Assembly (NCBI GenBank): GCA_022574205.1
Contig: JACZSL010000002.1
Coordinates: forward strand, 11,965-75,964
Reading direction: 5' to 3'
Length of the DNA stretch: 64,000 nucleotides
Origin: Patescibacteria group bacterium
Lineage (GTDB): Bacteria > Patescibacteriota > Minisyncoccia > Phycocordibacterales > JACZSL01
The notes beneath the pieces were generated by a model. The model did not search any database. It was not told the DNA's origin and was given only the letters and a program-made list of their open reading frames with translations. Shown here piece by piece: positions 13,093 through 64,000 of the stretch (positions are counted from its first letter, which is position 1; each line of letters opens with the position of its first letter). The position numbers and the translations under genes are program-made.

Positions 13093-13287
13093 GTCTTAGA
13101 TTTTGTTAATTATTTTGAGTGTTAACGAAAATTGATGTTACAAAACATTAGACCGAGCACATAGTGTGTGCTGACTAGATGATCGGAAATGTTTGACAGT
13201 GGCCTGTAAATTTTTTGCATACTTGTTTGGTTCGTGCTATGTGCTCGGCTAATCAATTAATAGTCGTCCTCGCAAGCTCGGACTCCT

Positions 13288-18017: not shown

Positions 18018-19124
18018 TTAATTAAATAATTCTGTGTCTGGATGCACCGCAAGCCACGAGAACCAAAATGCTCCAATGTATGGAAGTGGTTGTCTTCTAG
18101 CGCCAATGAACATGCGTACTCCTCCAATATTACTCTTCTCAATGGTAATATCATTACCTAGAAATATATCTTTCGTTTCCCCAATAGGAAGCGCCTCGTT
18201 GTCATAAGCTTTAAACTTGCCGTCTATTTCAATACCAAGAACATATACTTTTGGATGTAGGCGGTCATCGTTGAAACTTGCTCCGAAGGAAACGTCACGG
18301 TTTGTGTAGTAGTTTCCATACGGATCTCTCCCATAATTTCTTGAAAAGCCGGTGTCTTGTGAAAGTATTTTTGTCTTTGGGTGTTTCCCTTTCCAATCGC
18401 CATAAAGAACAGCGTCTGACGGAATGATAGTAAGTTTACGGCCTGTGTGAATCCCGAGCACCGCCTCCCCCAAGACTTGTGACCATAGCGACTCATCGTC
18501 TTCGTTTGGGGTTCGATTATACATTAGAAGATTTGAACGCCATAGCCGCCCCGATACGCCAAACTCTGTCGGACTGCCATTAAGCTCTCTATCAAAAATA
18601 ATACCGGTAAGACACAGTGGGCAGTACGAAATAAGCAGTGGGTCTCCGGCCACAGTATCGTTTACAAGTTCGTGCCACACTAAAATGGAGTATGGGTAGA
18701 AACGTGTTTCTCCTTTGTAGGAGAGCCCGAGTCCAGGGTTGTCATCAGATAAATATTCATCTGCTTCGCTTATGTTTACAAACTTTGGATTATCAATTGA
18801 CGGAATCCCGTCTTTAGGAGGGCCGCCTGAAAGAATTTCATTGATTGGAATTGAGTGTTTTGTACCGTCAGTGACAAAAATCTCACGGGAACTTGTGCCG
18901 GGGATTTCTATCGTAGACCCATCGTTTACTCCGTCCAACACCTCCTCCTTCTCTGTGCCTTCGCTCGCTTTTATATTATTTAATTCAGCTTCTGTTGTTT
19001 CTTCAGTGTTAAGTGGTGTAGTCTCCCCTGTTGGTAATTCGAATCGCTCTCCTCTCGTAAAAATGAAAGCCGCTCCAAGAGCGATTGCAAGCAAAATAAT
19101 GATAATGACGGTGCTCGAACTCAT
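18018..19124 (-). CDS. DUF3179 secreted protein (CPLC motif)
   Basis: N-terminal TM/signal; ...LLISYCPLCLTG... WFSWLAVHPDTELF. Confidence 0.55.
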   Translation of the reverse strand: MSSSTVIIIILLAIALGAAFIFTRGERFELPTGETTPLNTEETTEAELNNIKASEGTEKEEVLDGVNDGSTIEIPGTSSREIFVTDGTKHSIPINEILSGGPPKDGIPSIDNPKFVNISEADEYLSDDNPGLGLSYKGETRFYPYSILVWHELVNDTVAGDPLLISYCPLCLTGIIFDRELNGSPTEFGVSGRLWRSNLLMYNRTPNEDDESLWSQVLGEAVLGIHTGRKLTIIPSDAVLYGDWKGKHPKTKILSQDTGFSRNYGRDPYGNYYTNRDVSFGASFNDDRLHPKVYVLGIEIDGKFKAYDNEALPIGETKDIFLGNDITIEKSNIGGVRMFIGARRQPLPYIGAFWFSWLAVHPDTELFN

Positions 19125-19230
19125 CCCATTAGATAATTATTCTTTTAATATTTGATGTTGGCATTGTGTTTTTCGTTTTATTTACATTTAAGAATATTTG
19201 GCGTAATCGTAATTACTAACGGGACAAGTA

Positions 19231-20873: not shown

Positions 20874-21293
20874 TTACTTCAACAAAAACTCTTTTGCTTT
20901 CCTCAACACCTCCCTCCTATTACTATATTGTATGAGCTTATTTGCTTCCTCAAATGTCGCCCACTTGTAGCTTTGTATTTCACTTTCTTGCGGCACTACT
21001 ACATTGTTTTCTACAAAACCCAGAAAATAATGCACTTCTTTTCTATACGACTTACCTTCATCTCGGACAACAATATATTCCTCTACTACTTTAAAGTCTT
21101 CAACGATGTCGATTTTATGTATTCCTGTTTCCTCGCTGAATTCACGCAGGGCTGTTTGTAGATCACTTTCGCCTTTTTCCTGCTCGCCCTTCGGGAAACT
21201 AAACGAGTCGTTTGTTTGTTGAACTATTAAGTAAAGATTATCACCTTCTACTTTATGGACGGGAATAATACCGCATGATTTTTTGTGTATCAT
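20874..21293 (-). CDS. NUDIX hydrolase
   Basis: Nudix box GEQEKGESDLQTALREFSEETGI. Confidence 0.8.
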   Translation of the reverse strand: MIHKKSCGIIPVHKVEGDNLYLIVQQTNDSFSFPKGEQEKGESDLQTALREFSEETGIHKIDIVEDFKVVEEYIVVRDEGKSYRKEVHYFLGFVENNVVVPQESEIQSYKWATFEEANKLIQYSNRREVLRKAKEFLLK

Positions 21294-21420
21294 CCCGATA
21301 GTAATAGGACACGGACACAGACTGTCCTTGCCACAAGATTAAACTTTCATTAATGTTCGACTTTTCCATTATATTTTGTCTCAGTGTCCGTCCTGCTTGC
21401 CGGCAGGCAGGGATTACTAT
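21294..21420 (-). repeat. ~130-bp repeated leader/MITE-like element, copy 1 (ends exactly at the NUDIX start codon)
   Basis: ~80% identical to 53081-53210; terminal inverted repeats cccgatagtaat/attactat(aagg); internal GC palindrome cctgcttgccggcaggcagg. Confidence 0.6.
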
Positions 21421-21431
21421 AAGGACTCATG

Positions 21432-21513
21432 TGCCCAGGGGGGGACTTGAACCCCCAAGCCGTGAAGCATACGCCCCTCAAGCGTACGAGTTTACCAATT
21501 TCTCCACCTGGGC
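21432..21513 (-). tRNA. tRNA-Leu (GAG), long variable arm
   Basis: Reverse complement GCCCAGGTGGAGAAATTGGTAAAC..TACGCTTGAGGGGCGTA..GGTTCAAGTCCCCCCCTGGGCA. Confidence 0.8.
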
Positions 21514-22188
21514 TTACAGTGTTTTATTTACGACACTTAATGCTTTTTCTATTTTTCTGCGTTTGCGAGATAAGCATATCACGTTTTTGTCGTAATACAT
21601 TTTTTTTAGGATCTTTAGTGATTCACTTTTTGCAAACCTTAATTGGTGTACGTTACCAAATTTGGAGCACACAATATGCCCTTTCACACTGATTAATTTC
21701 CCGAGCTCCTCTTTTATCCAATCTATGTGTTTTCTACTAGCAGAAGCAAAAACAACGTAAAACATGTAGCTTTTTTTCCAACGAGGATCCCAATACGAAT
21801 AAAAACACCCATCCCCATCATGATGACCTCTAAGAAAATCAAAGAAGTATGTTAGTGGAATTTCTATCTTGCCTATAATTTTTGTCTTGGCTGGACTAAA
21901 GCCAGCACCCAAAAGAAATTTGTACAACTTGACACTACCAAACTGAATTCTTGTGGTTCTTTTGCCAGTATGGGTAGAAATTTTGGTTCCAATTTTAACA
22001 TTAATGTTAAGACAACGCATAAAATTTAAAAGTTGTTCTTTGTCCTTGGAGGTTAAGTCAAAATGTCTTCCATCTATCGAGAGACTTCCATCAGTAGCTA
22101 AAAGCCCCATTGCATATGCAAAATTTGGACTCCACTTGGTACTTATTTCACTATTTCTCTTCACATTAGTCGTGCAATAATCATACAA
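21514..22188 (-). CDS. LAGLIDADG homing endonuclease (two-motif, single chain); its stop directly abuts the tRNA-Leu 5' end
   Basis: LLATDGSLSIDG and FLRGHHDGDGCF LAGLIDADG motifs. Confidence 0.75.
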   Translation of the reverse strand: MYDYCTTNVKRNSEISTKWSPNFAYAMGLLATDGSLSIDGRHFDLTSKDKEQLLNFMRCLNINVKIGTKISTHTGKRTTRIQFGSVKLYKFLLGAGFSPAKTKIIGKIEIPLTYFFDFLRGHHDGDGCFYSYWDPRWKKSYMFYVVFASASRKHIDWIKEELGKLISVKGHIVCSKFGNVHQLRFAKSESLKILKKMYYDKNVICLSRKRRKIEKALSVVNKTL

Positions 22189-22799: not shown

Positions 22800-23004
22800 A
22801 CGCCTGAATAGGCCAAACTTTAGCACAAGAAGTGCGGTTGTGCAAGAATACGCTAGATTCTGAGCGCTTTTATGGAGCTAAAATCACAGACTATTTTTGA
22901 ATGTCCCAGAAACTGTTTACGAAACGGGTGGATTGTCGACAGCCTACGCTCTCCATCGCTACTTACCTTACCACCCACTACCTACTACGATCGGTTGTAG
23001 TACC

Positions 23005-23044
23005 CACTTCGACTCCCGCCTGCCGGCGGGCAGGAATCGAAGTG
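23005..23044. repeat. GC-rich 40-nt hairpin of the CCTGCCGGC(R)GGCAGG palindrome family (possible terminator of the rluA-like gene / start of the rplS leader)
   Basis: cacttcgactcccgcctgccggcgggcaggaatcgaagtg: 8-bp outer stem plus GC-rich inner stem. Confidence 0.5.
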
Positions 23045-23057
23045 TGTAAGCTGTATA

Positions 23058-29784: not shown

Positions 29785-29817
29785 ACGTGTACACGTCAGG
29801 ACGTACGTCCTGACGTG
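29785..29817. repeat. Perfect palindromes ACGTGTACACGT and CACGTCAGGACGTACGTCCTGACGTG (copy A)
   Basis: Sequence agctacgtgtacacgtcaggacgtacgtcctgacgtggg, between divergent tRNA-Ser and the ORF at 29886; the 26-bp core recurs at 36361. Confidence 0.6.
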
Positions 29818-29885
29818 GGTGTCTTGCGTCACTAATCACACGTTTTTGTTCCGCAAAATTAACTCATTGCGCTATACTTATAGTA

Positions 29886-33211: not shown

Positions 33212-34165
33212 ATGCAAAACAGTTCAATGAAAGACATAGCAATATTAATAGCTCTTATTATTGTTGTCATATTGTCTTGGATTACAGGGACAAATAAGGG
33301 GATTACGGGCCAGCCTACAATACCGGGTGTTTCCCTTGAGGTTACCAGTTCTAATACCTCTTTTTATGGAAGGACGTCGGCATCGAACGCATCAAACGAT
33401 ATAGAAGAAGCGGTTGTTATACGTACACAAACTGAAATTGATGCGGTAGAATATGCACTTCAGTCAATAGAGCTATTCAGTGAAAAATCTCCTTACGAGG
33501 GCATGGTGACTATAGACAAGAGGTCTTTGGGTCCCCGCAATACAACTCCAGAACAAGAATACATACGTTTTATAGCTTCAAGACAAAATTCACAGAAAAT
33601 TCCTATAAGCGGTTGGAGAATTGAGAGTGTAATTACTGGCCGCTCGCTTGCTATTCCTGAAGCGTCCTATCTTCCTAGGTCGGGAGTTGTAAACAATAAA
33701 CTTCCTGTGTGGTTAGAGCCTGGAGACACCGTAATCTTGAGTACGGGTCGTTCTCCTATAGGTGTATCGTTTAGAACTAATCTTTGTACGGGGTATTTTA
33801 CCCAGTTTCAAACATTTAATCCGCGTTTGGAGGAAAGGTGTCCAGATGCTGAAAATGAAATTCTCTTTTACACCGGAGATAGGAGTGTTTTAGTAGATAA
33901 TGCGTGTATGGATTTTGTTGAACGAATTGGTCGTTGTGATATAACAATAAAAGTGCCAATACTTCTTTCGTCCCTTTGCCACGATGCTATAGGGTTGGAA
34001 ATCAACTACAACAGTTGTGTGGATCACCACAAAGACAGCGCTTCTTTTGTTGGAAATGATTGGAGACTGTTTCTTAAGCGAGAGGAGGAGTTGTGGAGAT
34101 CAAAACGAGAATTATTAAAACTTGTTGATCAAAATGGTAAAGTGGTGGATGTATATTCATACTAA
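33212..34165 (+). CDS. hypothetical membrane-anchored protein (possible lamin-tail-like beta domain)
   Basis: N-terminal TM; ...IPISGWRIESVITGRSLAIPEASYLPRSGVVNNKLPVWLEPGDTVIL... Confidence 0.35.
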   Translation: MQNSSMKDIAILIALIIVVILSWITGTNKGITGQPTIPGVSLEVTSSNTSFYGRTSASNASNDIEEAVVIRTQTEIDAVEYALQSIELFSEKSPYEGMVTIDKRSLGPRNTTPEQEYIRFIASRQNSQKIPISGWRIESVITGRSLAIPEASYLPRSGVVNNKLPVWLEPGDTVILSTGRSPIGVSFRTNLCTGYFTQFQTFNPRLEERCPDAENEILFYTGDRSVLVDNACMDFVERIGRCDITIKVPILLSSLCHDAIGLEINYNSCVDHHKDSASFVGNDWRLFLKREEELWRSKRELLKLVDQNGKVVDVYSY

Positions 34166-34641
34166 CGATCGAGGGCACGATATAAAATAATGCCGGCGGT
34201 TGTTGCGACATTGAGTGATTCTTTTTTTCCATGCATGGGTATAAAAATTGTATGGTCGCACCTCTCTAAAAGGGCTTGTGACAGGCCTCGAACTTCATTT
34301 CCAAATACAAAGGCTGCTTTCTTTGGTGTGTTAAATTTTTTGTAGTCAGTTGCGTCTTTTCCCTGTTCAACCGCAACTACGACGAAATTGTCTTTCTTTA
34401 AACGACGCAAAAGGTTTCCTATGTTGGAAATGTGTTCCCAAAAAACATTTTTTTCCGTGCCGAGTGCCGTTTTGTGAAGATCACTCCGTATGCGTCCAAA
34501 CCTGTCACGTGGCGTGGGTGAATATCCCGAAAGATATATCGTATCAATACCGATTGCGTCAGCGACTCTAAAAATGGCGCCGACATTCTGGACGCTCCTC
34601 ACGTTGTGGAGCACGATGTATGAAATATGTTTCTTTTTCAT
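34162..34641 (-). CDS. SpoU/TrmH-family RNA 2'-O-methyltransferase (TrmL-sized)
   Basis: ...NVGAIFRVADAIGIDTIYL...; ...FVFGNEVRGLS... Confidence 0.75.
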   Translation of the reverse strand: MKKKHISYIVLHNVRSVQNVGAIFRVADAIGIDTIYLSGYSPTPRDRFGRIRSDLHKTALGTEKNVFWEHISNIGNLLRRLKKDNFVVVAVEQGKDATDYKKFNTPKKAAFVFGNEVRGLSQALLERCDHTIFIPMHGKKESLNVATTAGIILYRALDR

Positions 34642-34753
34642 CCCGATAGTGTCAGGTCGCGATCATCGCCTACCTACTGTTTAGTGTTTATATCGTTGTG
34701 GTTTCGACTTTTTGTATTCATATTATATCTTTACCTCGTGACCGCGGACACTA

Positions 34754-35200
34754 TTGGGATTCATCCTATATTTATACGAAATATGCTACTATGACGCCAT
34801 GCTTAATGTTTTTCCGGAACTGCTTTTCTTGTCATTTTTTGCGCCGTTAGTGTTGCGTGCCGTTTTAGGTTTCGTATTGTTGTCATATAGTTTGAATCGT
34901 CTCTATAGGCGTAAGCGTGAGTTTGAAGGTCTTTTTCTAAATCATTTTCCCTTAAATGGGAAAACACTGTTGTTAGCGGTAGGTATTCTTGAACTTGTGT
35001 TTGGCTTGGGATTGATTGCTGGCCTCTACACACAAATAATTGCGCTTGGCGTTATTCTTCTCTCACTAACGGCCATTCTTGGTAAAAATCCCGTACTTTT
35101 ATTTAGGAGTAGTCGGCTCATCTACTTTTTTATGTTAGGAATTTCGATTTCACTTCTATTGTCAGGGGCAGGGGGTTTTGCGTTTGACCTTCCACTTTAA
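34754..35200 (+). CDS. hypothetical polytopic membrane protein
   Basis: 148-aa ORF with four predicted TM helices. Confidence 0.35.
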   Translation: MGFILYLYEICYYDAMLNVFPELLFLSFFAPLVLRAVLGFVLLSYSLNRLYRRKREFEGLFLNHFPLNGKTLLLAVGILELVFGLGLIAGLYTQIIALGVILLSLTAILGKNPVLLFRSSRLIYFFMLGISISLLLSGAGGFAFDLPL

Positions 35201-36029: not shown

Positions 36030-36030
36030 G

Positions 36031-36103
36031 TCCGCCCAGCAGGACTCGAACCTGCGACCTTGAAGTTAAAAGCTTCCTGCTCTACCAGCTGAGCTATGGG
36101 CGG
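36031..36103 (-). tRNA. tRNA-Lys (TTT)
   Basis: Reverse complement CCGCCCATAGCTCAGCTGGTAGAGCAGGAAGCTTTTAACTTCAAGGTCGCAGGTTCGAGTCCTGCTGGGCGGA; anticodon loop CTTTTAA; unusual C1:G72. Confidence 0.75.
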
Positions 36104-36285
36104 ATGTATTATTATCGCACGAGCTACCAAGACAGCTATGGGCGGATGTATTATTATCGCACGAGCTACCAAGACAGCTATGGGCGGATGTATTATTATC
36201 GCACGAGCTACCAAGACAGCTATGGGCGGATGTATTGTTCGACTGTTATTTACCAAAACAGCTATGGGCGGTTGCCTTTATATAG
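36094..36285. repeat. 42-bp tandem direct repeat array: 3 identical copies, a diverged 4th and a partial 5th; each copy begins with the first 10 nt of tRNA-Lys
   Basis: Unit ctatgggcggatgtattattatcgcacgagctaccaagacag at 36094, 36136, 36178, 36220 (diverged), 36262 (partial); each unit carries a TAATAAT -10-like box. Confidence 0.85.
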
Positions 36286-36355: not shown

Positions 36356-36391
36356 ACCCACGTCAGGACGTACGTCCTGACGTGGGTTTCG
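36356..36391 (-). terminator. 36-bp perfect palindrome (copy B of the CACGTCAGGACGTACGTCCTGACGTG element), likely intrinsic terminator of the holA-like gene
   Basis: aaacccacgtcaggacgtacgtcctgacgtgggttt; on the minus strand the hairpin is followed by TTTT. Confidence 0.55.
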
Positions 36392-36459
36392 TGAACTTTG
36401 CGCGCCCTCCCATAACTCAAGCAGCTGTTTGAGTTATGGAATATTTTAAAAAAATACTT

Positions 36460-40709: not shown

Positions 40710-42461
40710 ATGATTAAATTTGATGAAGAACGGCAAAATAAAAAGCTAGCCCAGCTCCGCCACAGGGAGGAGGAGGATCTTGCTCGCACTCTTTCTGTGA
40801 AATATGGGGTTAAGTATGTCGACCTCTCACGTGTTGCTATTAACACAAACGCACTGATCCACCTTTCAGAGGAAAAGTCCCGAGCCGCTGAGGTTGCTAT
40901 TTTCAATCAAGTAAGTAAAAAGTTGTCTATTGCTGTGCGATCGCCTAAAAAAATTGAGGTGGGTGCTATTGTACAGGGGCTAGAGAAGCGTGGGTACACC
41001 ACAGAACTCTATATGGTTTCTGTGGCAAGTCTCGAGCGAGCGTGGGTAATGTATAAAGAAATCTCGCATGCTGCTGAGGTTAAACGTGGTTCTGTAGATA
41101 TTTCAAGCGATGAACTGCAGTCAACGGTGGCAAAACTTAAAACATTCGAGGATGTGCGGGCGCTTATAAAAGAGGTGTTGAACATGGACAAAGCACATCG
41201 TGTGTCGCGCTTCGTTGAAACAATTCTGGCTGGTGCAATCGCTATTGATGCTTCGGATATACACATCGAACCGGAGGAAAAATATGTTCGTTTGCGTTAT
41301 CGCCTGAATGGCGTGCTCACTGATGTGGTTAATTTTGACATAGATATTTATAATTTAGTACTTTCCCGTATAAAACTCGTCTCTGGCTTAAAACTTAATG
41401 TTAGAGATTCAGCCCAAGATGGTAGGTTTAGTGTGGGCATTGATAATGTTGACACCGAGATTAGAACATCCATACTTCCTGATGCGTATGGAGAAAGTAT
41501 TGTCATGCGTATTTTGAATCCACAGTCAATTAAGATTTCTATTGATGATATTGGAATGAATCCTAAGCTCCTTGCGATTGTCAAAAGAGAGTTAAAAAAA
41601 CCAAACGGCATGATTCTTACAACAGGGCCAACAGGAAGTGGAAAGACAACAACTCTTTACACTTTCCTTTCAAAAATTCACACTTCTGAGATTAAAATAA
41701 TCACTATTGAGGACCCTGTTGAATATCATCTTCCTGGGATTGTGCAAAGTCAGGTAGACGGTAAGGATTATACGTTCGCCACAGGACTTCGAGCGGCACT
41801 TCGACAAGATCCGGACGTAATTATGGTTGGGGAGATTCGTGACGAAGAAGTTGCGAGAACTGCAATACACTCTGCGCTTACTGGTCACCTTGTTCTTTCA
41901 ACACTTCACACAAATACAGCTGCTGGTGCGTTTCCAAGGCTTATTGACTTAGGTGTGGTGCCAAACGTTATAGGTTCTGCGGTCAATATGGTGATGGCAC
42001 AACGACTTGTTCGCACGCTCTGTGAGCACTGTAAGAAAGAGGTGCCTCTACAGGGTGAACAAAAAAAACTTGTTGAGTACATCCTAGGTACTATTGAAAT
42101 TAAAGAGCAAATACCAGAAAAAATAGACACGGTATGGGAACCTGGGCAGTGTAGCAAGTGCAATCACTTGGGGTATGGAAAGCGTGTAAGTATTTATGAA
42201 GCTATTCTTATGGACAAAAAGATTGAGCAAGCGGTTGAAAGAAAAGCAAGTGAGCGCGAGATAGCAGAAATTGCTAGGAGTCAAGGTATTCTCACGCTTC
42301 GACAAGACGGTATTCTGAAAGTCATTCGTGGCATAACTTCCATAAGAGAGCTTGGACGTGTGGTATCTCTTAATGATAGTATTGACCAAGCTGAGCTTGA
42401 TAAGGTCTTTGAAGAGAGGGTAGCGGAAAATCCGATCCATAACCCTCTAAGCAACACTTGA
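40710..42461 (+). CDS. pilB: Type IV pilus assembly ATPase PilB (GspE family)
   Basis: N-terminal GspE_N-like domain; Walker A ILTTGPTGSGKTTTLY; Asp and His boxes; tetracysteine CEHC...CSKC. Confidence 0.9.
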   Translation: MIKFDEERQNKKLAQLRHREEEDLARTLSVKYGVKYVDLSRVAINTNALIHLSEEKSRAAEVAIFNQVSKKLSIAVRSPKKIEVGAIVQGLEKRGYTTELYMVSVASLERAWVMYKEISHAAEVKRGSVDISSDELQSTVAKLKTFEDVRALIKEVLNMDKAHRVSRFVETILAGAIAIDASDIHIEPEEKYVRLRYRLNGVLTDVVNFDIDIYNLVLSRIKLVSGLKLNVRDSAQDGRFSVGIDNVDTEIRTSILPDAYGESIVMRILNPQSIKISIDDIGMNPKLLAIVKRELKKPNGMILTTGPTGSGKTTTLYTFLSKIHTSEIKIITIEDPVEYHLPGIVQSQVDGKDYTFATGLRAALRQDPDVIMVGEIRDEEVARTAIHSALTGHLVLSTLHTNTAAGAFPRLIDLGVVPNVIGSAVNMVMAQRLVRTLCEHCKKEVPLQGEQKKLVEYILGTIEIKEQIPEKIDTVWEPGQCSKCNHLGYGKRVSIYEAILMDKKIEQAVERKASEREIAEIARSQGILTLRQDGILKVIRGITSIRELGRVVSLNDSIDQAELDKVFEERVAENPIHNPLSNT

Positions 42462-42641
42462 GTAAACAAATGCTTGGTGTTTCGTCTAAGGATGACCACA
42501 GATGAGAGCAAGCTCCGTCCACGGCGTCCTCGTCGGACAGCCAATTGCTTAGAGGGCTATGAACCGGATTTGGTTCAGAGCCTTTCTTTATCAAAACAGC
42601 CTCGTTTGAGACTGCCTTCAATTTATCATAAAAATTTACTT

Positions 42642-43652
42642 ATGTCAAGTGGTACTTCAAAAAACAGGGATGCCTTGCTTTTGGACCAAACACTCCGCCC
42701 GATTGGTTGGGATGAGTATGTTGGTCAGCAAAAAATAAAAGAAAATTTAAAAATCCTTTTAACCGCAGCGTGTGAACGCTCACAGCCTCCAGAGCATCTT
42801 CTTTTTTATGGTCCGCCTGGACTGGGGAAAACAACATTAGCACATTTAATTGCACGAGAGCTTGGCGCACAAATGAAAATAACAAGTGGTCCTGCAATTG
42901 AGCGTGTTGGAGATCTCGCGTCAATTCTTACAAACTTAAGTAGTGGTGATATATTATTTATCGACGAGGTGCACCGACTCAATAAAACAATTGAAGAAGT
43001 ACTCTACCCCGCCATGGAAAGTGGTGTACTAGATATTATTATTGGAAAAGGGCCGTCTGCGCGAACTATTCAGTTGGAATTACCGCCATTTACATTAATT
43101 GCAGCCACAACTCGTATTGCACTTCTTTCTTCTCCGCTTCGTTCTAGGTTTTCAGGCGGCACGTTTAGATTAAACTTCTATTCAAATCAGGAGATTGAGA
43201 AAATAATAAAACGATCTGCTGGGATTCTTAACGTGTCTATACAGGATGATGCGTGTAAAGAAATAGCTAAAAGGAGCCGTTTTACGCCAAGAACAGCAAA
43301 CTACCTTCTAAAGCGTTCGAGAGACTTTGCTCAGGTAAATAAATCCGACCTTACACGCCGAATGGTTGATGGCGCGCTTTCGCTACTTGAGATTGATAAC
43401 TTGGGTTTGACTGCTTCTGATAAATATTTACTTTTAACTATTATTCATAAATTTAATGGTGGTCCTGTTGGATTAAACACGCTTTCGGCCGCAACAAGTG
43501 AAGAGATGGCAACAATTGAAGAAGTGTCAGAACCATATTTGATTCAGCTTGGACTTATTGAACGGACGCCGCGTGGGCGTGTTACGACAGAGCGTGCTTA
43601 TGAGCACTTTGGTGTAAAAACCCCGGTAAATAAACAAAGTGAACTTTTGTAA
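42642..43652 (+). CDS. ruvB: Holliday junction helicase RuvB
   Basis: LRPIGWDEYVGQQKIKENL...LFYGPPGLGKTTLAHLIA...DEVHRL; start set at MSSGTSKNRD; the listed ORF has a 56-aa basic extension that is probably spurious. Confidence 0.9.
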   Translation: MSSGTSKNRDALLLDQTLRPIGWDEYVGQQKIKENLKILLTAACERSQPPEHLLFYGPPGLGKTTLAHLIARELGAQMKITSGPAIERVGDLASILTNLSSGDILFIDEVHRLNKTIEEVLYPAMESGVLDIIIGKGPSARTIQLELPPFTLIAATTRIALLSSPLRSRFSGGTFRLNFYSNQEIEKIIKRSAGILNVSIQDDACKEIAKRSRFTPRTANYLLKRSRDFAQVNKSDLTRRMVDGALSLLEIDNLGLTASDKYLLLTIIHKFNGGPVGLNTLSAATSEEMATIEEVSEPYLIQLGLIERTPRGRVTTERAYEHFGVKTPVNKQSELL

Positions 43653-51890: not shown

Positions 51891-52220
51891 GTGAATAAAA
51901 GAAAACCGGTAACTAGAAAAATTTTCGACCGCATTTTAAAAACCGGAAAAACATACCATCAACCACTATTTAGTTTTCACACACTACACACACTTGAAAA
52001 TGTATACAGGATTGTGTGTGTTGTACCAAAGAGCACGGAAAAGTCTGCTGTTGTTAGAAACAAGTTACGACGTCGTTGTTACTATGCGATTTATAAACTA
52101 CTCAACAATAATAAGTATTTTTTAGCAATCCTATTTATTAAATCAGGCGCGAAACGCCTTCCATATAAATTATTTGAGGAAAAGATAGCCGTTCTTCTCA
52201 AAAGATCCGGCATACTGTAA
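51891..52220 (+). CDS. rnpA: RNase P protein component
   Basis: Basic protein ...VVRNKLRRRCYYAIYKLL...; canonical rpmH-rnpA order. Confidence 0.85.
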   Translation: MNKRKPVTRKIFDRILKTGKTYHQPLFSFHTLHTLENVYRIVCVVPKSTEKSAVVRNKLRRRCYYAIYKLLNNNKYFLAILFIKSGAKRLPYKLFEEKIAVLLKRSGIL

Positions 52221-52331: not shown

Positions 52332-53063
52332 ATGATATCAGGATTATTTCACACATTCTTCTACAACCCTATATACAACGGGCTTGTTTTTTTGATAGAC
52401 ATCGTTCCACTTGCTGATGTTGGTGTAGCAATTATTCTTATTACTGTTTTAGTTAAGCTTCTCCTCTTCCCTATTTCACAAAAGGCTGTGCGCACACAGT
52501 TCATCATGAGGGGGTTACAGCCACAACTCGAAAAGATTAAAGAAAAGTATGCAAAGGACAAGCAGGCGCAAGCGCGCAAAACAATGGACCTTTATAAGGA
52601 GAAAGGAATTAATCCATTTTCTGGAATTCTTCTTATTTTCATCCAAATCCCGATTATTTTGGCACTCTACTGGGTATTTTTCCGTGGCGGACTACCAGAA
52701 ATAGATCTAAGCATTCTATATTCTTTTATAAACGAACCAAGTAAAATTAATATGAATTTTCTCGGGTTGATTCCTATGGATGGCCGCAGTATCGTTCTTG
52801 CGTTTCTTGCAGGACTGTCACAATATTTCCAGATTAAACTTTCATTGCCAGACCTCAAAAAAAGAGACGACAAAGCAAGCCTTAAGGATGATTTTGCACG
52901 GAGCTTCCAACTTCAAATGCGTTACATGCTCCCGCTATTTATATTCGGTTTTTCATATTTCGTTTCAGCAGCAGTTGCATTATATTGGTTTACAAGTAAT
53001 ATATTTGCCATTGGGCAAGAGATTTTCTTAAGAGGAAGGCTGGCTAAAGAAAAGAAAGACTAA
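52332..53063 (+). CDS. yidC: Membrane protein insertase YidC/Oxa1 (short form)
   Basis: ...LYKEKGINPFSGILLIFIQIPIILALYWVF... Confidence 0.9.
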   Translation: MISGLFHTFFYNPIYNGLVFLIDIVPLADVGVAIILITVLVKLLLFPISQKAVRTQFIMRGLQPQLEKIKEKYAKDKQAQARKTMDLYKEKGINPFSGILLIFIQIPIILALYWVFFRGGLPEIDLSILYSFINEPSKINMNFLGLIPMDGRSIVLAFLAGLSQYFQIKLSLPDLKKRDDKASLKDDFARSFQLQMRYMLPLFIFGFSYFVSAAVALYWFTSNIFAIGQEIFLRGRLAKEKKD

Positions 53064-53080
53064 CTAAAAACAAAATAAAT

Positions 53081-53210
53081 CCCGATAGTAATCCCTGCCT
53101 GCCGGCAGGCAGGATGGACACTAAGACAATATATTATGAGAAAGTCGATTATCAAAAAAACTTAATCTTGTGGCAAGGATAATTTCAGTTCGTGTCCTAT
53201 TACTATCGGG
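53081..53210 (+). repeat. ~130-bp repeated leader/MITE-like element, copy 2, with perfect 12-bp terminal inverted repeats and a perfect 20-bp GC palindrome; ends exactly at the jag start codon
   Basis: cccgatagtaat ... attactatcggg|ATG; cctgcctgccggcaggcagg at 53094-53113; ~80% identical to the 21294-21420 copy in the same orientation relative to the downstream gene. Confidence 0.65.
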
Positions 53211-53690
53211 ATGAAAAACGAGGAAATAAAAAATACCATCGAAACGTTTTTGGAAAAAATGACAATACCATTTGACGATGTTGAGTGTATAGAAACCAAC
53301 CTCCACAGTACATTTTTAGTACATTCAAGCGACGCCGGTATCTTAATAGGAGTAAAGGGAGAAACGCTAGAGGCATTAGGTTATCTTATCAGGCGAGTAG
53401 TCGAGAAAAACAACACCGAAGACGATAGAAGTGTTTTTATTGTTGATGTAAACAACTACCAAACAAAAAAAATCCAAGAGCTTATCGACAGTGCGCAGGC
53501 ATCAGCACGCAGGGTAAAATTATTTAAACAAAGCGTCGAGCTTTCCCCCATGACCAGCTACGAACGCATGCTAATACATTCACTTTTCACAGACGACAAA
53601 GAAATTACCACCACCTCCTACGGCGACGGAAAATTTCGTCGCATTGTACTCCAACTTCAGGGAGTGGAAAACTCTGAAGAAGTAGTCTAA
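53211..53690 (+). CDS. Jag/KhpB-like R3H RNA-binding protein
   Basis: KH-like ...GILIGVKGETLEALGYLIRRVV...; R3H ...SYERMLIHSLF...; canonical position after yidC. Confidence 0.8.
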   Translation: MKNEEIKNTIETFLEKMTIPFDDVECIETNLHSTFLVHSSDAGILIGVKGETLEALGYLIRRVVEKNNTEDDRSVFIVDVNNYQTKKIQELIDSAQASARRVKLFKQSVELSPMTSYERMLIHSLFTDDKEITTTSYGDGKFRRIVLQLQGVENSEEVV

Positions 53691-53706: not shown

Positions 53707-54966
53707 CTATTTACCTAAGCGCAGGCTCCAAAGAGAGGAGTCTCTTTTGTTTATGAAAAAGAGGTATTCTCCAGACTCACTTACAGCAAGATTAACCATA
53801 TCAATAGTGAAATCTCTCTCTTGCCTAAGGTCAACGAGCAGGCGTGTAACATCTCTCGACACATCAATTTCCCAAATACTGTCGGAGAAAGAAATTTTTC
53901 CCTGATACCAACTATCAGGGTATAAGTCCTCTGAAACCACGAATGGCACACCACAGTAGACAATATTCCTATTAACGGGGCTCCACCCACACTTTTCTGG
54001 GAGTGTTTTAACAGAGAATAAACGCATATCGCGCGTTTTTAGTTCGAATAAGAAAAGACCAAAATCACCACTAGTGCTTTTAGACAATAGAATACGGTCT
54101 CCATACGGGCTTGTGTTTACTGTTAATCCCAAAATACCATCCAGGAGCTTTTCTGGAACAGCACCACCCCCCTCCTCAAGAGAGTATACTAAGCCAGCTA
54201 CTAGACCAGAAGCTTTTGTGGTAAAGAAGATTTTTCCACTATTTGTTATCTCGTAGAGGAGTTCGTGGAGGAATGAACGATATACCGTTTCCACACCAGA
54301 GCCGTTGAAAGAAGATTTTTTAAGCAAAGTCTCGCGATCTCCACGAATAGTATAGAAAATATTTTCACCAACATCATCAGTTGTGAAGAAATCTATGTCA
54401 TCCGGAAGAAAACGTCCATCGATCGTAGAGACAGACGTGCCACTAACAATGTGAGCATTAAACGTCTTTATAACATCGTTTTCATCCAGATAACGAAGTA
54501 CAACCCGTGTAGCATTTTTATTCCAAATCGCCTCATAAACACCTGGAATTGTGGTGTTTGTAACGCGTACAGACTCAATTTTTTCCGGATCAACTTGGTA
54601 TATATTCCCTGTTATACGCTCAACGAAGCGCACAGACGGAGCTCCGTCGCTTGTTGTTGTGGCAACAAATCCAGCCACAGGTGTTGTTGTTAGTTGCTGT
54701 AGCACACTTTCTCCAAACTGACGCCTTTTTAACACAAGATTATCATCAAAACCAAAACCAACAAACCCACCCTCATTTTCAAATGTGAGTGGTGGGCGCT
54801 CTTCGTCTAAACCAAGTACAGAATCATCAGAAAAGAGACCACCAAAAAAACCAACATTTTCTTGACTATCGCCAGATGACCCCCCACCATCCCTTTGTAT
54901 TAGAAAAAACCAACCCAAAATTCCAAGGATCAATGTGATAATAAATATAATTAGTATTTTTTTCAT
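53707..54966 (-). CDS. hypothetical membrane-anchored extracellular protein (first listed gene of the T4SS-like cluster region)
   Basis: Start moved to MKKILIIFIITLIL (TM anchor); Gly/Ser-rich linker; beta-rich body. Confidence 0.4.
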   Translation of the reverse strand: MKKILIIFIITLILGILGWFFLIQRDGGGSSGDSQENVGFFGGLFSDDSVLGLDEERPPLTFENEGGFVGFGFDDNLVLKRRQFGESVLQQLTTTPVAGFVATTTSDGAPSVRFVERITGNIYQVDPEKIESVRVTNTTIPGVYEAIWNKNATRVVLRYLDENDVIKTFNAHIVSGTSVSTIDGRFLPDDIDFFTTDDVGENIFYTIRGDRETLLKKSSFNGSGVETVYRSFLHELLYEITNSGKIFFTTKASGLVAGLVYSLEEGGGAVPEKLLDGILGLTVNTSPYGDRILLSKSTSGDFGLFLFELKTRDMRLFSVKTLPEKCGWSPVNRNIVYCGVPFVVSEDLYPDSWYQGKISFSDSIWEIDVSRDVTRLLVDLRQERDFTIDMVNLAVSESGEYLFFINKRDSSLWSLRLGK

Positions 54967-55007
54967 GATGTAAATAAATACAGAATGTACATATAATACA
55001 ATGAAAC

Positions 55008-55919
55008 TTAGCCGCCAGCACCAGGACGATAGCACGGGGTGGCCGACACAAACAACGGTCTCGAGGACGCGTCTCTCCGTGCTTGTTCACAAAGCAGAGA
55101 ATCGTTAACAGGTACGGGACACTGCTGTTGTGTTAGACGTCTGTCGTCAGACCCCACCGACGTAGTGATATCATAACAAAATTCCCTACCTATTCCTCTA
55201 GAGCCGTCGGCTGTCGAGAAGCACCCTTCTTCTATACCATAAGAGATAAAAACTTGTCTTGGACGGGCCTTATACTCTTCTTCCCCAGCAAGGCATTGTT
55301 CCAAGGTAGTCCATATGGTTTCTTCACCAGAAAAAAATCCAAAACTACCACATTCTATATCAGCAAATCCACCAGCATCGTCGCCAACAAAACAAAAACC
55401 TTGATCTATTATTACTCTGTTGGCATATCCTGTCAGCGCCGCGGCTTCCTCAGCACGACTACGATCATCAAGTTCTATTCCAGAAACTACACCACCAACC
55501 TTGTCTTGAAGTGTGCCAAAAAAGTCGAAACTAAGAATCTTTGGGTTAATTGTTTGCAGAACCAGAACGGAAAGAAGAACAATTAGGAGTCCCCCAAACA
55601 CACCAGTCATACATTTTTTCGCCGCCTCTTTTGAGCTTATTGCTTCGCTCATCATATACTGAAAACCACAAATCATTAACTTGATTACTGCAAGAACTGC
55701 AATTATAGAAATGAAAAGAACAAAAATATTGTTAAAATATTGCACCAATCCGGAAGGACCCCCAGTATTCACAGAACTCCCAACACCAGGAAGCGGGGAA
55801 ATAGGCGTATACGATTGCGCAAACACAGTGTCTACAAACAACAACATTAGAATACAACACAACGCAAACGTTAATATGTAAGTGGTTTGTGCGGACTTGA
55901 ATTTACTTGGAAAAAACAT
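55008..55919 (-). CDS. VirB2/TrbC-like pilin candidate with a ~170-aa Cys-rich C-terminal domain
   Basis: Signal peptide (…VFA|QS), two hydrophobic helices separated by a short charged loop (LVQYFNNIFVLFISIIAVLAVIKLMICG / MTGVFGGLLIVLLSVLVL), then a domain with ≥9 Cys. Confidence 0.35.
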   Translation of the reverse strand: MFFPSKFKSAQTTYILTFALCCILMLLFVDTVFAQSYTPISPLPGVGSSVNTGGPSGLVQYFNNIFVLFISIIAVLAVIKLMICGFQYMMSEAISSKEAAKKCMTGVFGGLLIVLLSVLVLQTINPKILSFDFFGTLQDKVGGVVSGIELDDRSRAEEAAALTGYANRVIIDQGFCFVGDDAGGFADIECGSFGFFSGEETIWTTLEQCLAGEEEYKARPRQVFISYGIEEGCFSTADGSRGIGREFCYDITTSVGSDDRRLTQQQCPVPVNDSLLCEQARRDASSRPLFVSATPCYRPGAGG

Positions 55920-63656: not shown

Positions 63657-63695
63657 TATGTTGTATTCAAGCCGGAAAAATTATCTGCTCTAAAA

Positions 63696-64000
<305 letters not shown>

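Follow-up and report, generated by a model that had tools for sequence, protein, structure and literature searches.

The systems that come closest to the element considered here are small bacterial repeats and some insertion sequences. Correia repeats have inverted repeats of about 26 bp, a TA target duplication, and an IHF site, while PATEs, which derive from IS200/IS605 elements, are without terminal inverted repeats (TIRs) or target duplications and have similar hairpins at both ends. Members of the IS1380 family, such as ISEcp1, have ends that begin with CC, a duplication of 4-5 bp, and outward-reading effects on the gene downstream. As a rule, genomes as tiny as those of Patescibacteria (CPR) are considered poor in mobile DNA. 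Prokaryotic MITEs are defined by a length of less than 500 bp, TIRs of 4-30 bp, and flanking direct repeats (PMC10969869). RNase III cleaves Correia repeats, and promoters are present in some of their subtypes (PMC10969869). This makes the repeats a model for the possible effect of the present element on the gene downstream of it. Literature searches returned no paper describing MITEs in CPR/Patescibacteria, and nothing specific on leaderless genes in that group.

The window (the whole stretch of 64,000 nucleotides analysed here) contains such an element between yidC and jag. Like the Correia/NEMIS repeats of Neisseria, it is about 100-150 bp long, non-coding, multi-copy, and bounded by TIRs, and the likeness extends to a position directly upstream of genes, co-transcription with them, and folding as a long hairpin. 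It differs from Correia repeats in having repeats of 12-13 bp with an unrelated sequence, in duplicating (A)TGAR, in showing no IHF-like site by eye, and in adjoining a start codon exactly in every copy; it has no sequence similarity to Correia repeats and by these features is not one of them. With RUP, ERIC, Chunjie, MITEAba12, and QMITEs it shares its size, inverted repeats, flanking direct repeats that decay with age, the lack of a transposase gene, and a division into size and sequence subfamilies (PMC10969869). Unlike generic MITEs, it has a host among the Patescibacteria (CPR), has no parent insertion sequence that could be found, and occurs at start codons only and in one orientation. 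PATEs resemble it in being small and non-coding, with a short specific target and a single orientation, but the element has perfect TIRs and an apparent target duplication, and it does not have the paired hairpins of PATEs. The IS1380 family may be a lead to the type of the parent, and only a lead; neither a transposase of the IS1380 type nor a matching end turned up.

The best explanation overall, and a likely one, is that the family is a mobile, non-coding MITE that inserts at start codons. It is an undescribed family of a known kind of element, and what is noteworthy about it is insertion at start codons in one orientation. The copies are 99-131 bp in length and have no transposase ORF, and their TIRs are 12-13 bp. 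Four copies are dispersed over the 64-kb window, or about one per 16 kb, and further copies are present in two other Patescibacteria. A Patescibacteria genome can thus hold MITE copies at this density, placed without breaking genes.

Structure of the element and its copies

A preliminary description of this DNA gave copy 2 perfect 12-bp TIRs and a perfect 20-bp palindrome, and placed its end at the jag ATG within an rpmH-rnpA-yidC-jag operon. These features are all present (Table 1): the jag ORF opens at the nucleotide after the 3' repeat stops, and Pfam assigns the four genes to L34, RnpA, YidC, and Jag/KhpB, with dnaA divergent upstream of this operon. The same description had the element occupying the whole yidC-jag spacer, which holds except for 17 of the 147 nt (53064-53080) left free on the upstream side. 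Alignment shows that these 17 nt correspond to what was once the 3' end of yidC; the decayed left duplicate of the target is part of them. The name "copy 2" was appropriate in that a copy 1 exists, but the window total is four copies rather than two.

The inverted repeat of copy 2 is perfect over 12 bp and reaches 13-14 bp when the flanking T/A and A/T positions (53079-53080, 53211-53212) are counted. With at most one mismatch allowed, the 12-mer repeat occurs four times in the window against 0.19 expected, and with at most three mismatches the 20-mer of the palindrome occurs three times against 0.00 expected. Counts so far above expectation indicate that the repeats of copy 2 did not arise by chance. 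The family has the end consensus (T)CCCRATAGT...ACTATCGGG(A), with TIRs of 12-13 bp enclosing non-coding elements of 117-131 bp; the two TIRs match perfectly in copy 2 and in the L129 copy described below, at 11 of 12 positions in copy 3, and at 10 of 12 in copy 1. The internal motif AAAGTCGA is common to copies 1, 2, and 3, 53-54 nt upstream of ACTATCGGG. In the L129 copy it is 49 nt from ACTATCGGG, where its presence was demanded by the search pattern. None of the copies share a conserved ORF: internal ATGs open ORFs of 9-24 codons that lie in different frames in different copies, and an encoded peptide was ruled out for this reason. In-frame read-through from the left ATG was also rejected, since the frame is kept only in copy 3 (123 nt), where codon 14 is a stop.

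Table 1. Positions of the features in the window, with the sequences flanking insertions here and on other contigs and the two states of the SpoU site
Feature	Position	Strand	Remarks
Copy 1	21294-21424	-	131 bp; 83-85% identical to copy 2; found by repeat finding and blastn
Copy 2	53081-53210	+	130 bp, yidC-jag spacer; covariance-model score 155 bits
Copy 2, 5' terminal inverted repeat CCCGATAGTAAT	53081-53092	+	13 bp with T at 53080
Copy 2, 3' terminal inverted repeat ATTACTATCGGG	53199-53210	+	13 bp with A of jag ATG at 53211
Copy 2, palindrome CCTGCCTGCCGGCAGGCAGG	53094-53113	+	perfect 20 bp, 8-bp stem and 4-nt loop; subfamily of copies 1 and 2 only
Copy 2, internal motif AAAGTCGA	53141-53148	+	
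Copy 2, left target duplicate	53075-53079	+	ATAAA, decayed; in frame with yidC
Copy 2, right target duplicate	53211-53215	+	ATGAA, the jag start
Copy 3	34642-34758	-	117 bp, divergent subfamily; TIR CCCAATAGTGTC/GACACTATCGGG; 56-58% identical
Copy 4, degenerate	19125-19223	-	about 99 bp; CCCGTTAGTAATTA...TAATTATCTAATGGG
L34 gene	51724-51858		Pfam
RnpA gene	51891-52220		Pfam
yidC (60KD_IMP)	52332-53063	+	Pfam
jag/khpB	53211-53690	+	KH and R3H, 159-aa ORF; Pfam
Flanks of copy 1	21430-21426 / 21293-21289		left ATGAG, right ATGAT
Flanks of copy 2 in the window			left ATAAA, right ATGAA
Flanks of copy 2 in L002			left ATGAA, right ATGAA
Flanks of copy 2 in L003/L004			left ACAAA, right ATGAA
Flanks of copy 3			left ATGAA, right ATGAA
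Flanks of the L129 copy			left ATAAG, right ATGAG
SpoU site, empty			TATAGG ATGAA AAAG
SpoU site, filled			TATAGG ATGAA T[CCCAATAG...CTATCGGG] ATGAA AAAG

Copy 1 occupies the gap between tRNA-Leu(gag), at 21431-21513, and a NUDIX gene (20874-21293), whose ATG it adjoins. Directly upstream of the tRNA gene and copy 1, an ORF on the minus strand (21514-22188) has a faint LAGLIDADG_3 match in the gene tables of the strain contigs, and may be a free-standing homing-endonuclease-like gene. Copy 3 fills the entire spacer between the divergent DoxX and SpoU genes and adjoins the ATG of the latter, a SpoU/TrmH methyltransferase gene (34162-34641). Copy 4 adjoins the ATG of a DUF3179 gene (18018-19124) and its left duplicate is not recognisable; a covariance model built without this copy recovered it with 22.4 bits and an E of about 0.008.

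Outside the window, a copy of 119 bp with the ends CCCGATAGTGTC/GACACTATCGGG lies on contig L129 between greA and a class II aminoacyl-tRNA synthetase gene. The host is a member of the Patescibacteria according to homologues of its GreA, and the flanks have a GC content of 59% compared with 50% in the element. This copy was the single real match of a strict three-block metagenome scan, in which the pattern fixes parts of the ends and core, so the scan cannot measure the diversity of the family. It ends at the ATG of the synthetase gene, and the ATG was absent from the search pattern. At 779-806 of L129 (plus-strand coordinates) there is an extra internal ACTATCGGG, 10 nt past the 5' repeat, with which the 5' end can form the local hairpin CCCGATAGT-N10-ACTATCGGG as an alternative to the stem that closes the element. 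Contig L145, from another species, begins inside a truncated copy (1-27), the 3' part of which reads ..AAGGATAATTTTCTATCGGG and is followed directly by the ATG of SpoU; this part is unlike copy 3 and is the end of a different subfamily at the same SpoU ATG. In L004, a strain contig carrying copy 2, the element has been called as a spurious 51-aa ORF overlapping jag (2-157). The element can therefore break assemblies, as in L145, and mislead gene callers, as in L004.

Other searches did not extend the family. A scan of a genome collection with the pattern AAAGTCGAN{40,70}ACTATCGGG gave 118 matches in unrelated phyla, 0 of which fit the nhmmer profile of the element; the pattern is too unspecific. 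A first pattern scan of viral contigs had no matches, and the five from a second scan were rejected as chance 9-bp end matches without the core motif. Searches with blastn against plasmid and phage records found no similarity to the element.

Empty sites and target duplication

The preliminary description proposed empty sites in related genomes as the test of mobility, and named as a refutation the same sequence kept everywhere as part of the jag 5'UTR. The sequence is kept only in strains with an identical Jag, and empty sites are found at two loci, on seven contigs in total. The yidC-jag site is empty in four relatives (L123, L124, L125/L126, and L127/L128, with Jag proteins 91, 86, 79, and 67% identical), which share the gene order dnaN-dnaA / rnpA-yidC-jag / gene of about 418 aa. 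When aligned, the yidC stop in these relatives overlaps the jag ATG by 4 nt, ..AAACAACATGAAAAAC.. (..ACATGAAAAAC..). The SpoU site is empty in three relatives, L143, L144, and L151 (SpoU identity 91, 77, and 76%), where the divergent DoxX/SpoU arrangement is kept with a spacer of 34-38 nt, ..GTATAAATA(T/G)AGGATGAAAA... The empty sequence of these three is TATAGGATGAAAAAG and the filled sequence in the window is TATAGGATGAA-T[CCCAATAG...CTATCGGG]ATGAAAAAG, so that the filled and empty states differ by the element and exactly one added ATGAA. At both the SpoU and yidC-jag sites, ATGAA is present once in the empty state and twice in the filled state, which are the flanking direct repeats of a MITE.

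Downstream of jag in one of the empty relatives (L127, 609-8212) there are TraC-like, PrgI, and P-loop_TraG/DUF87-type ATPase genes, and the cluster is type IV secretion or conjugation-like; the matching ORFs of the window (53707-55035 and onward) had no Pfam match.

Among close strains the picture is uniform. The Jag protein is identical on four metagenome contigs and the element is present in all four, with up to about 10% substitutions in L002. At the remaining three sites, strain contigs (3-6 per site) have all kept their respective copies. No presence/absence polymorphism was seen among near-identical strains with this number of contigs per site. The empty sites at the two loci support the mobile-element reading, and what they show is past insertion, not current mobility. 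The SpoU protein of L145 is 78% identical to that of the window and 84% identical to that of L144, which is empty. Since both L144, the closer relative of L145, and L143, with 91% identity to the window, are empty, it looks as though two independent insertions have occurred in one SpoU site.

The duplicated target is (A)TGAA or (A)TGAR, of 4-5 bp. Left and right duplicates agree at four or five of the five positions in copy 3, L002, L129, and copy 1, and the fifth flanking base is the same on both sides in three of the four complete cases (A/A, A/A, and G/G). In every case a T comes directly after the left duplicate and the right one opens with an A, which allows an alternative reading as a 13-bp repeat with a 4-bp duplication, TGAR, in which the last A of the element completes the ATG. 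The length of the duplication is therefore ambiguous, and the effect is equal either way: the left duplicate preserves the stop codon of the upstream gene and the right duplicate preserves the start codon of the downstream gene. The stop of the yidC frame within the left duplicate is TGA in L002 and TAA in the window. The insertion pattern is a clean natural example of how duplication of a shared stop/start signal spares both neighbouring reading frames.

These flanks bear on a second reading, in which the element is a palindrome-associated derivative of a single-strand transposon of the IS200/IS605 type, inserted in one orientation 3' of ATGA without any duplication, the ATGA on the right belonging to the element. 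This would explain why the element is strictly oriented with respect to an asymmetric target and why ATGA is constant on either side of it, and there are hairpins near the ends of the element. The agreement of the fifth base in three of four cases, however, is easier to reconcile with duplicated host sequence than with a fixed end of the element, and elements of this type would not have perfect TIRs at their very tips. The hairpins vary in sequence and position between subfamilies and are not similar subterminal hairpins on left and right, and no gene for TnpA (Y1) or TnpB was seen. A derivative of the IS200/IS605 type is thus distinctly improbable.

In the lineage of this genome the element was inserted into (A)TGAA at the overlap of the yidC stop and jag start. 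Insertion duplicated the 4-5 bp target, with the left duplicate keeping the yidC stop and the right one (or the terminal A together with TG) keeping the jag ATG. The enzyme may have been a DDE-type transposase of a full-length insertion sequence with the same ends, acting in trans; an end-motif search of the window and of related contigs totalling about 150 kb found no autonomous element or transposase with matching ends. Once transcribed, the inverted repeats are predicted to pair into a stem that closes the whole element and takes in the A and U of the start codon.

Start codons, orientation, and the downstream gene

Relative to the gene downstream, the six insertions (copies 1-4, L129, and L145) are all oriented alike, and in each the 3' repeat touches the ATG. 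The window contains 290 ATGAR sites, of which 18 are at gene starts, 33 are in other non-coding sequence, and the rest are coding. If insertion into ATGAR were random and intragenic insertions were lost, then about 35% of insertions (18 of 51 tolerated sites) would be expected at starts. Four of four, at a probability of roughly 0.015, or six of six, at roughly 0.002, is more than this expectation, and a single orientation in six of six has a p of roughly 0.03; these statistics are based on six insertions only and on a crude gene model, and the search pattern that yielded L129 itself fixes parts of the ends and core. The excess at start codons and the single orientation are suggestive of something beyond chance. 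Symmetric inverted repeats would not predict a single orientation, and the occurrence of all insertions at (A)TGAR start codons in one orientation could result from a target preference combined with selection for neighbours that remain intact and expressible. Insertion at the transcription starts of leaderless genes is not supported, because the SpoU site alone is promoter-proximal and the others are operon junctions or lie behind a tRNA gene.

The terminal stem has 95.7% of its cells paired compared with 28-44% when the partner is slid, and the ends co-vary between subfamilies (TAAT/ATTA versus TGTC/GACA), three positions having changed on both sides. Copy 2 has a predicted fold of -48.4 kcal/mol. 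A rival reading is a cis-regulatory RNA leader of defined structure, such as a riboswitch or translational operator, which would control the gene behind it by hiding the start codon in its closing stem. All copies are sense-oriented and end at the AUG, the closing stem predicted for each of them takes in the A and U of this codon, the folds are better than those of shuffled sequences (z = -5.9 for copy 2, and -3.9, -3.8, -2.4, and -2.2), and the motif AAAGUCGA keeps a similar spacing to the 3' end across three copies of divergent sequence. The covariation, however, is confined to the terminal repeats and amounts to one event, which is equally expected for ends bound by a transposase. The internal helices differ between subfamilies, the substitutions in L002 are uncompensated (GGACAC/GTGTCC to TGACAC/GTGCCC), L003/L004 lose the closing pair of the hairpin loop, and the palindrome of copy 1 is mismatched. 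There was no Rfam match at the gathering threshold in the window, and when E was relaxed to 10 for copy 2 and to 1 for copy 3 and the L129 copy, only noise appeared. The copies precede unrelated genes (jag, NUDIX, SpoU, DUF3179, and a class II aminoacyl-tRNA synthetase), and the element is missing from the orthologous leaders of close relatives. Broken internal helices in front of unrelated genes argue against a dedicated regulatory RNA, which is considered very improbable.

Few genes in the window have a recognizable ribosome binding site: of 60 long ORFs, 6 have a Shine-Dalgarno-like motif in front. Hexamers of the form TAnnnT are most frequent 6-8 nt ahead of the ATG (21 of 60 genes), and T is enriched at -7 (33 of 60), so that initiation appears to be largely leaderless or coupled. 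A further rival reading is a portable promoter cassette. The 3' repeat would provide a -10 box (TACTAT or GACACT) for a leaderless mRNA beginning at the adjoining ATG, and the element would persist by rewiring transcription. Leaderless-type starts do dominate the genome, copy 3 separates SpoU from its old promoter, TACTAT plus 6 nt is the apparent -10 box of DoxX in the empty site, and Correia elements are known to carry promoters (PMC10969869). A sigma-70 consensus scan of the three intact copies, however, showed no consistent promoter on the sense strand. The TACTAT of the element is only 4 nt from the ATG, compared with 6-8 nt at other genes of the window, so that the expected start of transcription falls inside or after the ATG; the correctly spaced hexamers, ATTACT and GACACT, are poor matches to a -10 box. 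Given this spacing and the empty consensus scans, a promoter carried by the element is unsupported, and the cassette is extremely improbable.

Since an aminoacyl-tRNA synthetase gene lies behind one of the copies, the element should not be able to block expression. It is probably not neutral either, and would alter translation or mRNA processing of the downstream gene, as the predicted stem closing the whole element takes in the A and U of the start codon. With the AUG at the foot of a 12-14 bp stem, downstream translation may depend on read-through and RNase III-type cleavage of the kind described for Correia elements (PMC10969869), or on ribosomes re-initiating across the hairpin base. In a genome that starts most genes with no Shine-Dalgarno site, every insertion offers a natural experiment on initiation at an AUG directly behind a stable hairpin.

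A more specific form of the MITE reading, which is rather unlikely as it stands, is that of a start-codon-seeking MITE suited to compact genomes that rarely use Shine-Dalgarno sequences. Its (A)TGAR target would often be ATGA, the overlap of a stop and a start, the terminal stem would rejoin the duplicates in the mRNA, and coupling or near-leaderless processing would survive 130 inserted nucleotides. If true, this would explain why six of six insertions abut an ATG, their single orientation, and their tolerance in front of an aminoacyl-tRNA synthetase gene.

Other repeats in the window

Several further repeats were observed in the window. A GC-rich stand-alone hairpin, CCCGCCTGCCGGCGGGCAGG, lies between the pseudouridine synthase and L19 genes (23000-23050), nested in a longer palindrome, CACTTCGA...TCGAAGTG, and shares 18 of 20 positions with the palindrome of the element. 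The element model matches it weakly (E about 0.07), and the hairpin module of copies 1 and 2 may derive from it or be related to it. Perfect 12-bp inverted repeats 114 bp apart, CCCTCTAAGCAA...TTGCTTAGAGGG, are found at 42443-42556, where they span the junction of the ORFs 40710-42461 and 42492-43652 and end 2 nt before the ATG at 42559. This pair may represent another MITE-like family, with CCC...GGG tips, at a chance expectation for such pairs of about 0.4 per window. The secE-nusG spacer (13153-13248, minus strand) also has a perfect 12-bp inverted repeat, CCGAGCACATAG...CTATGTGCTCGG, with about 96 nt enclosed, and does not adjoin the nusG ATG.

Two kinds of repeat are near tRNA genes. Four tandem units of 42 nt (36082-36281) start inside tRNA-Lys (36030-36103) and repeat part of it. 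A stretch of 35 nt containing the palindrome CACGTCAGGACGTACGTCCTGACGTG occurs twice with 94% identity, at 29792-29826, about 110 nt from tRNA-Ser, and at 36359-36393, about 255 nt from tRNA-Lys, and looks like a REP-like hairpin. At the edge of the window, an imperfect GGC/GGT-rich repeat array (63688-63896) has periods of 9, 18, and 21 nt and is possibly a glycine-rich coding repeat.
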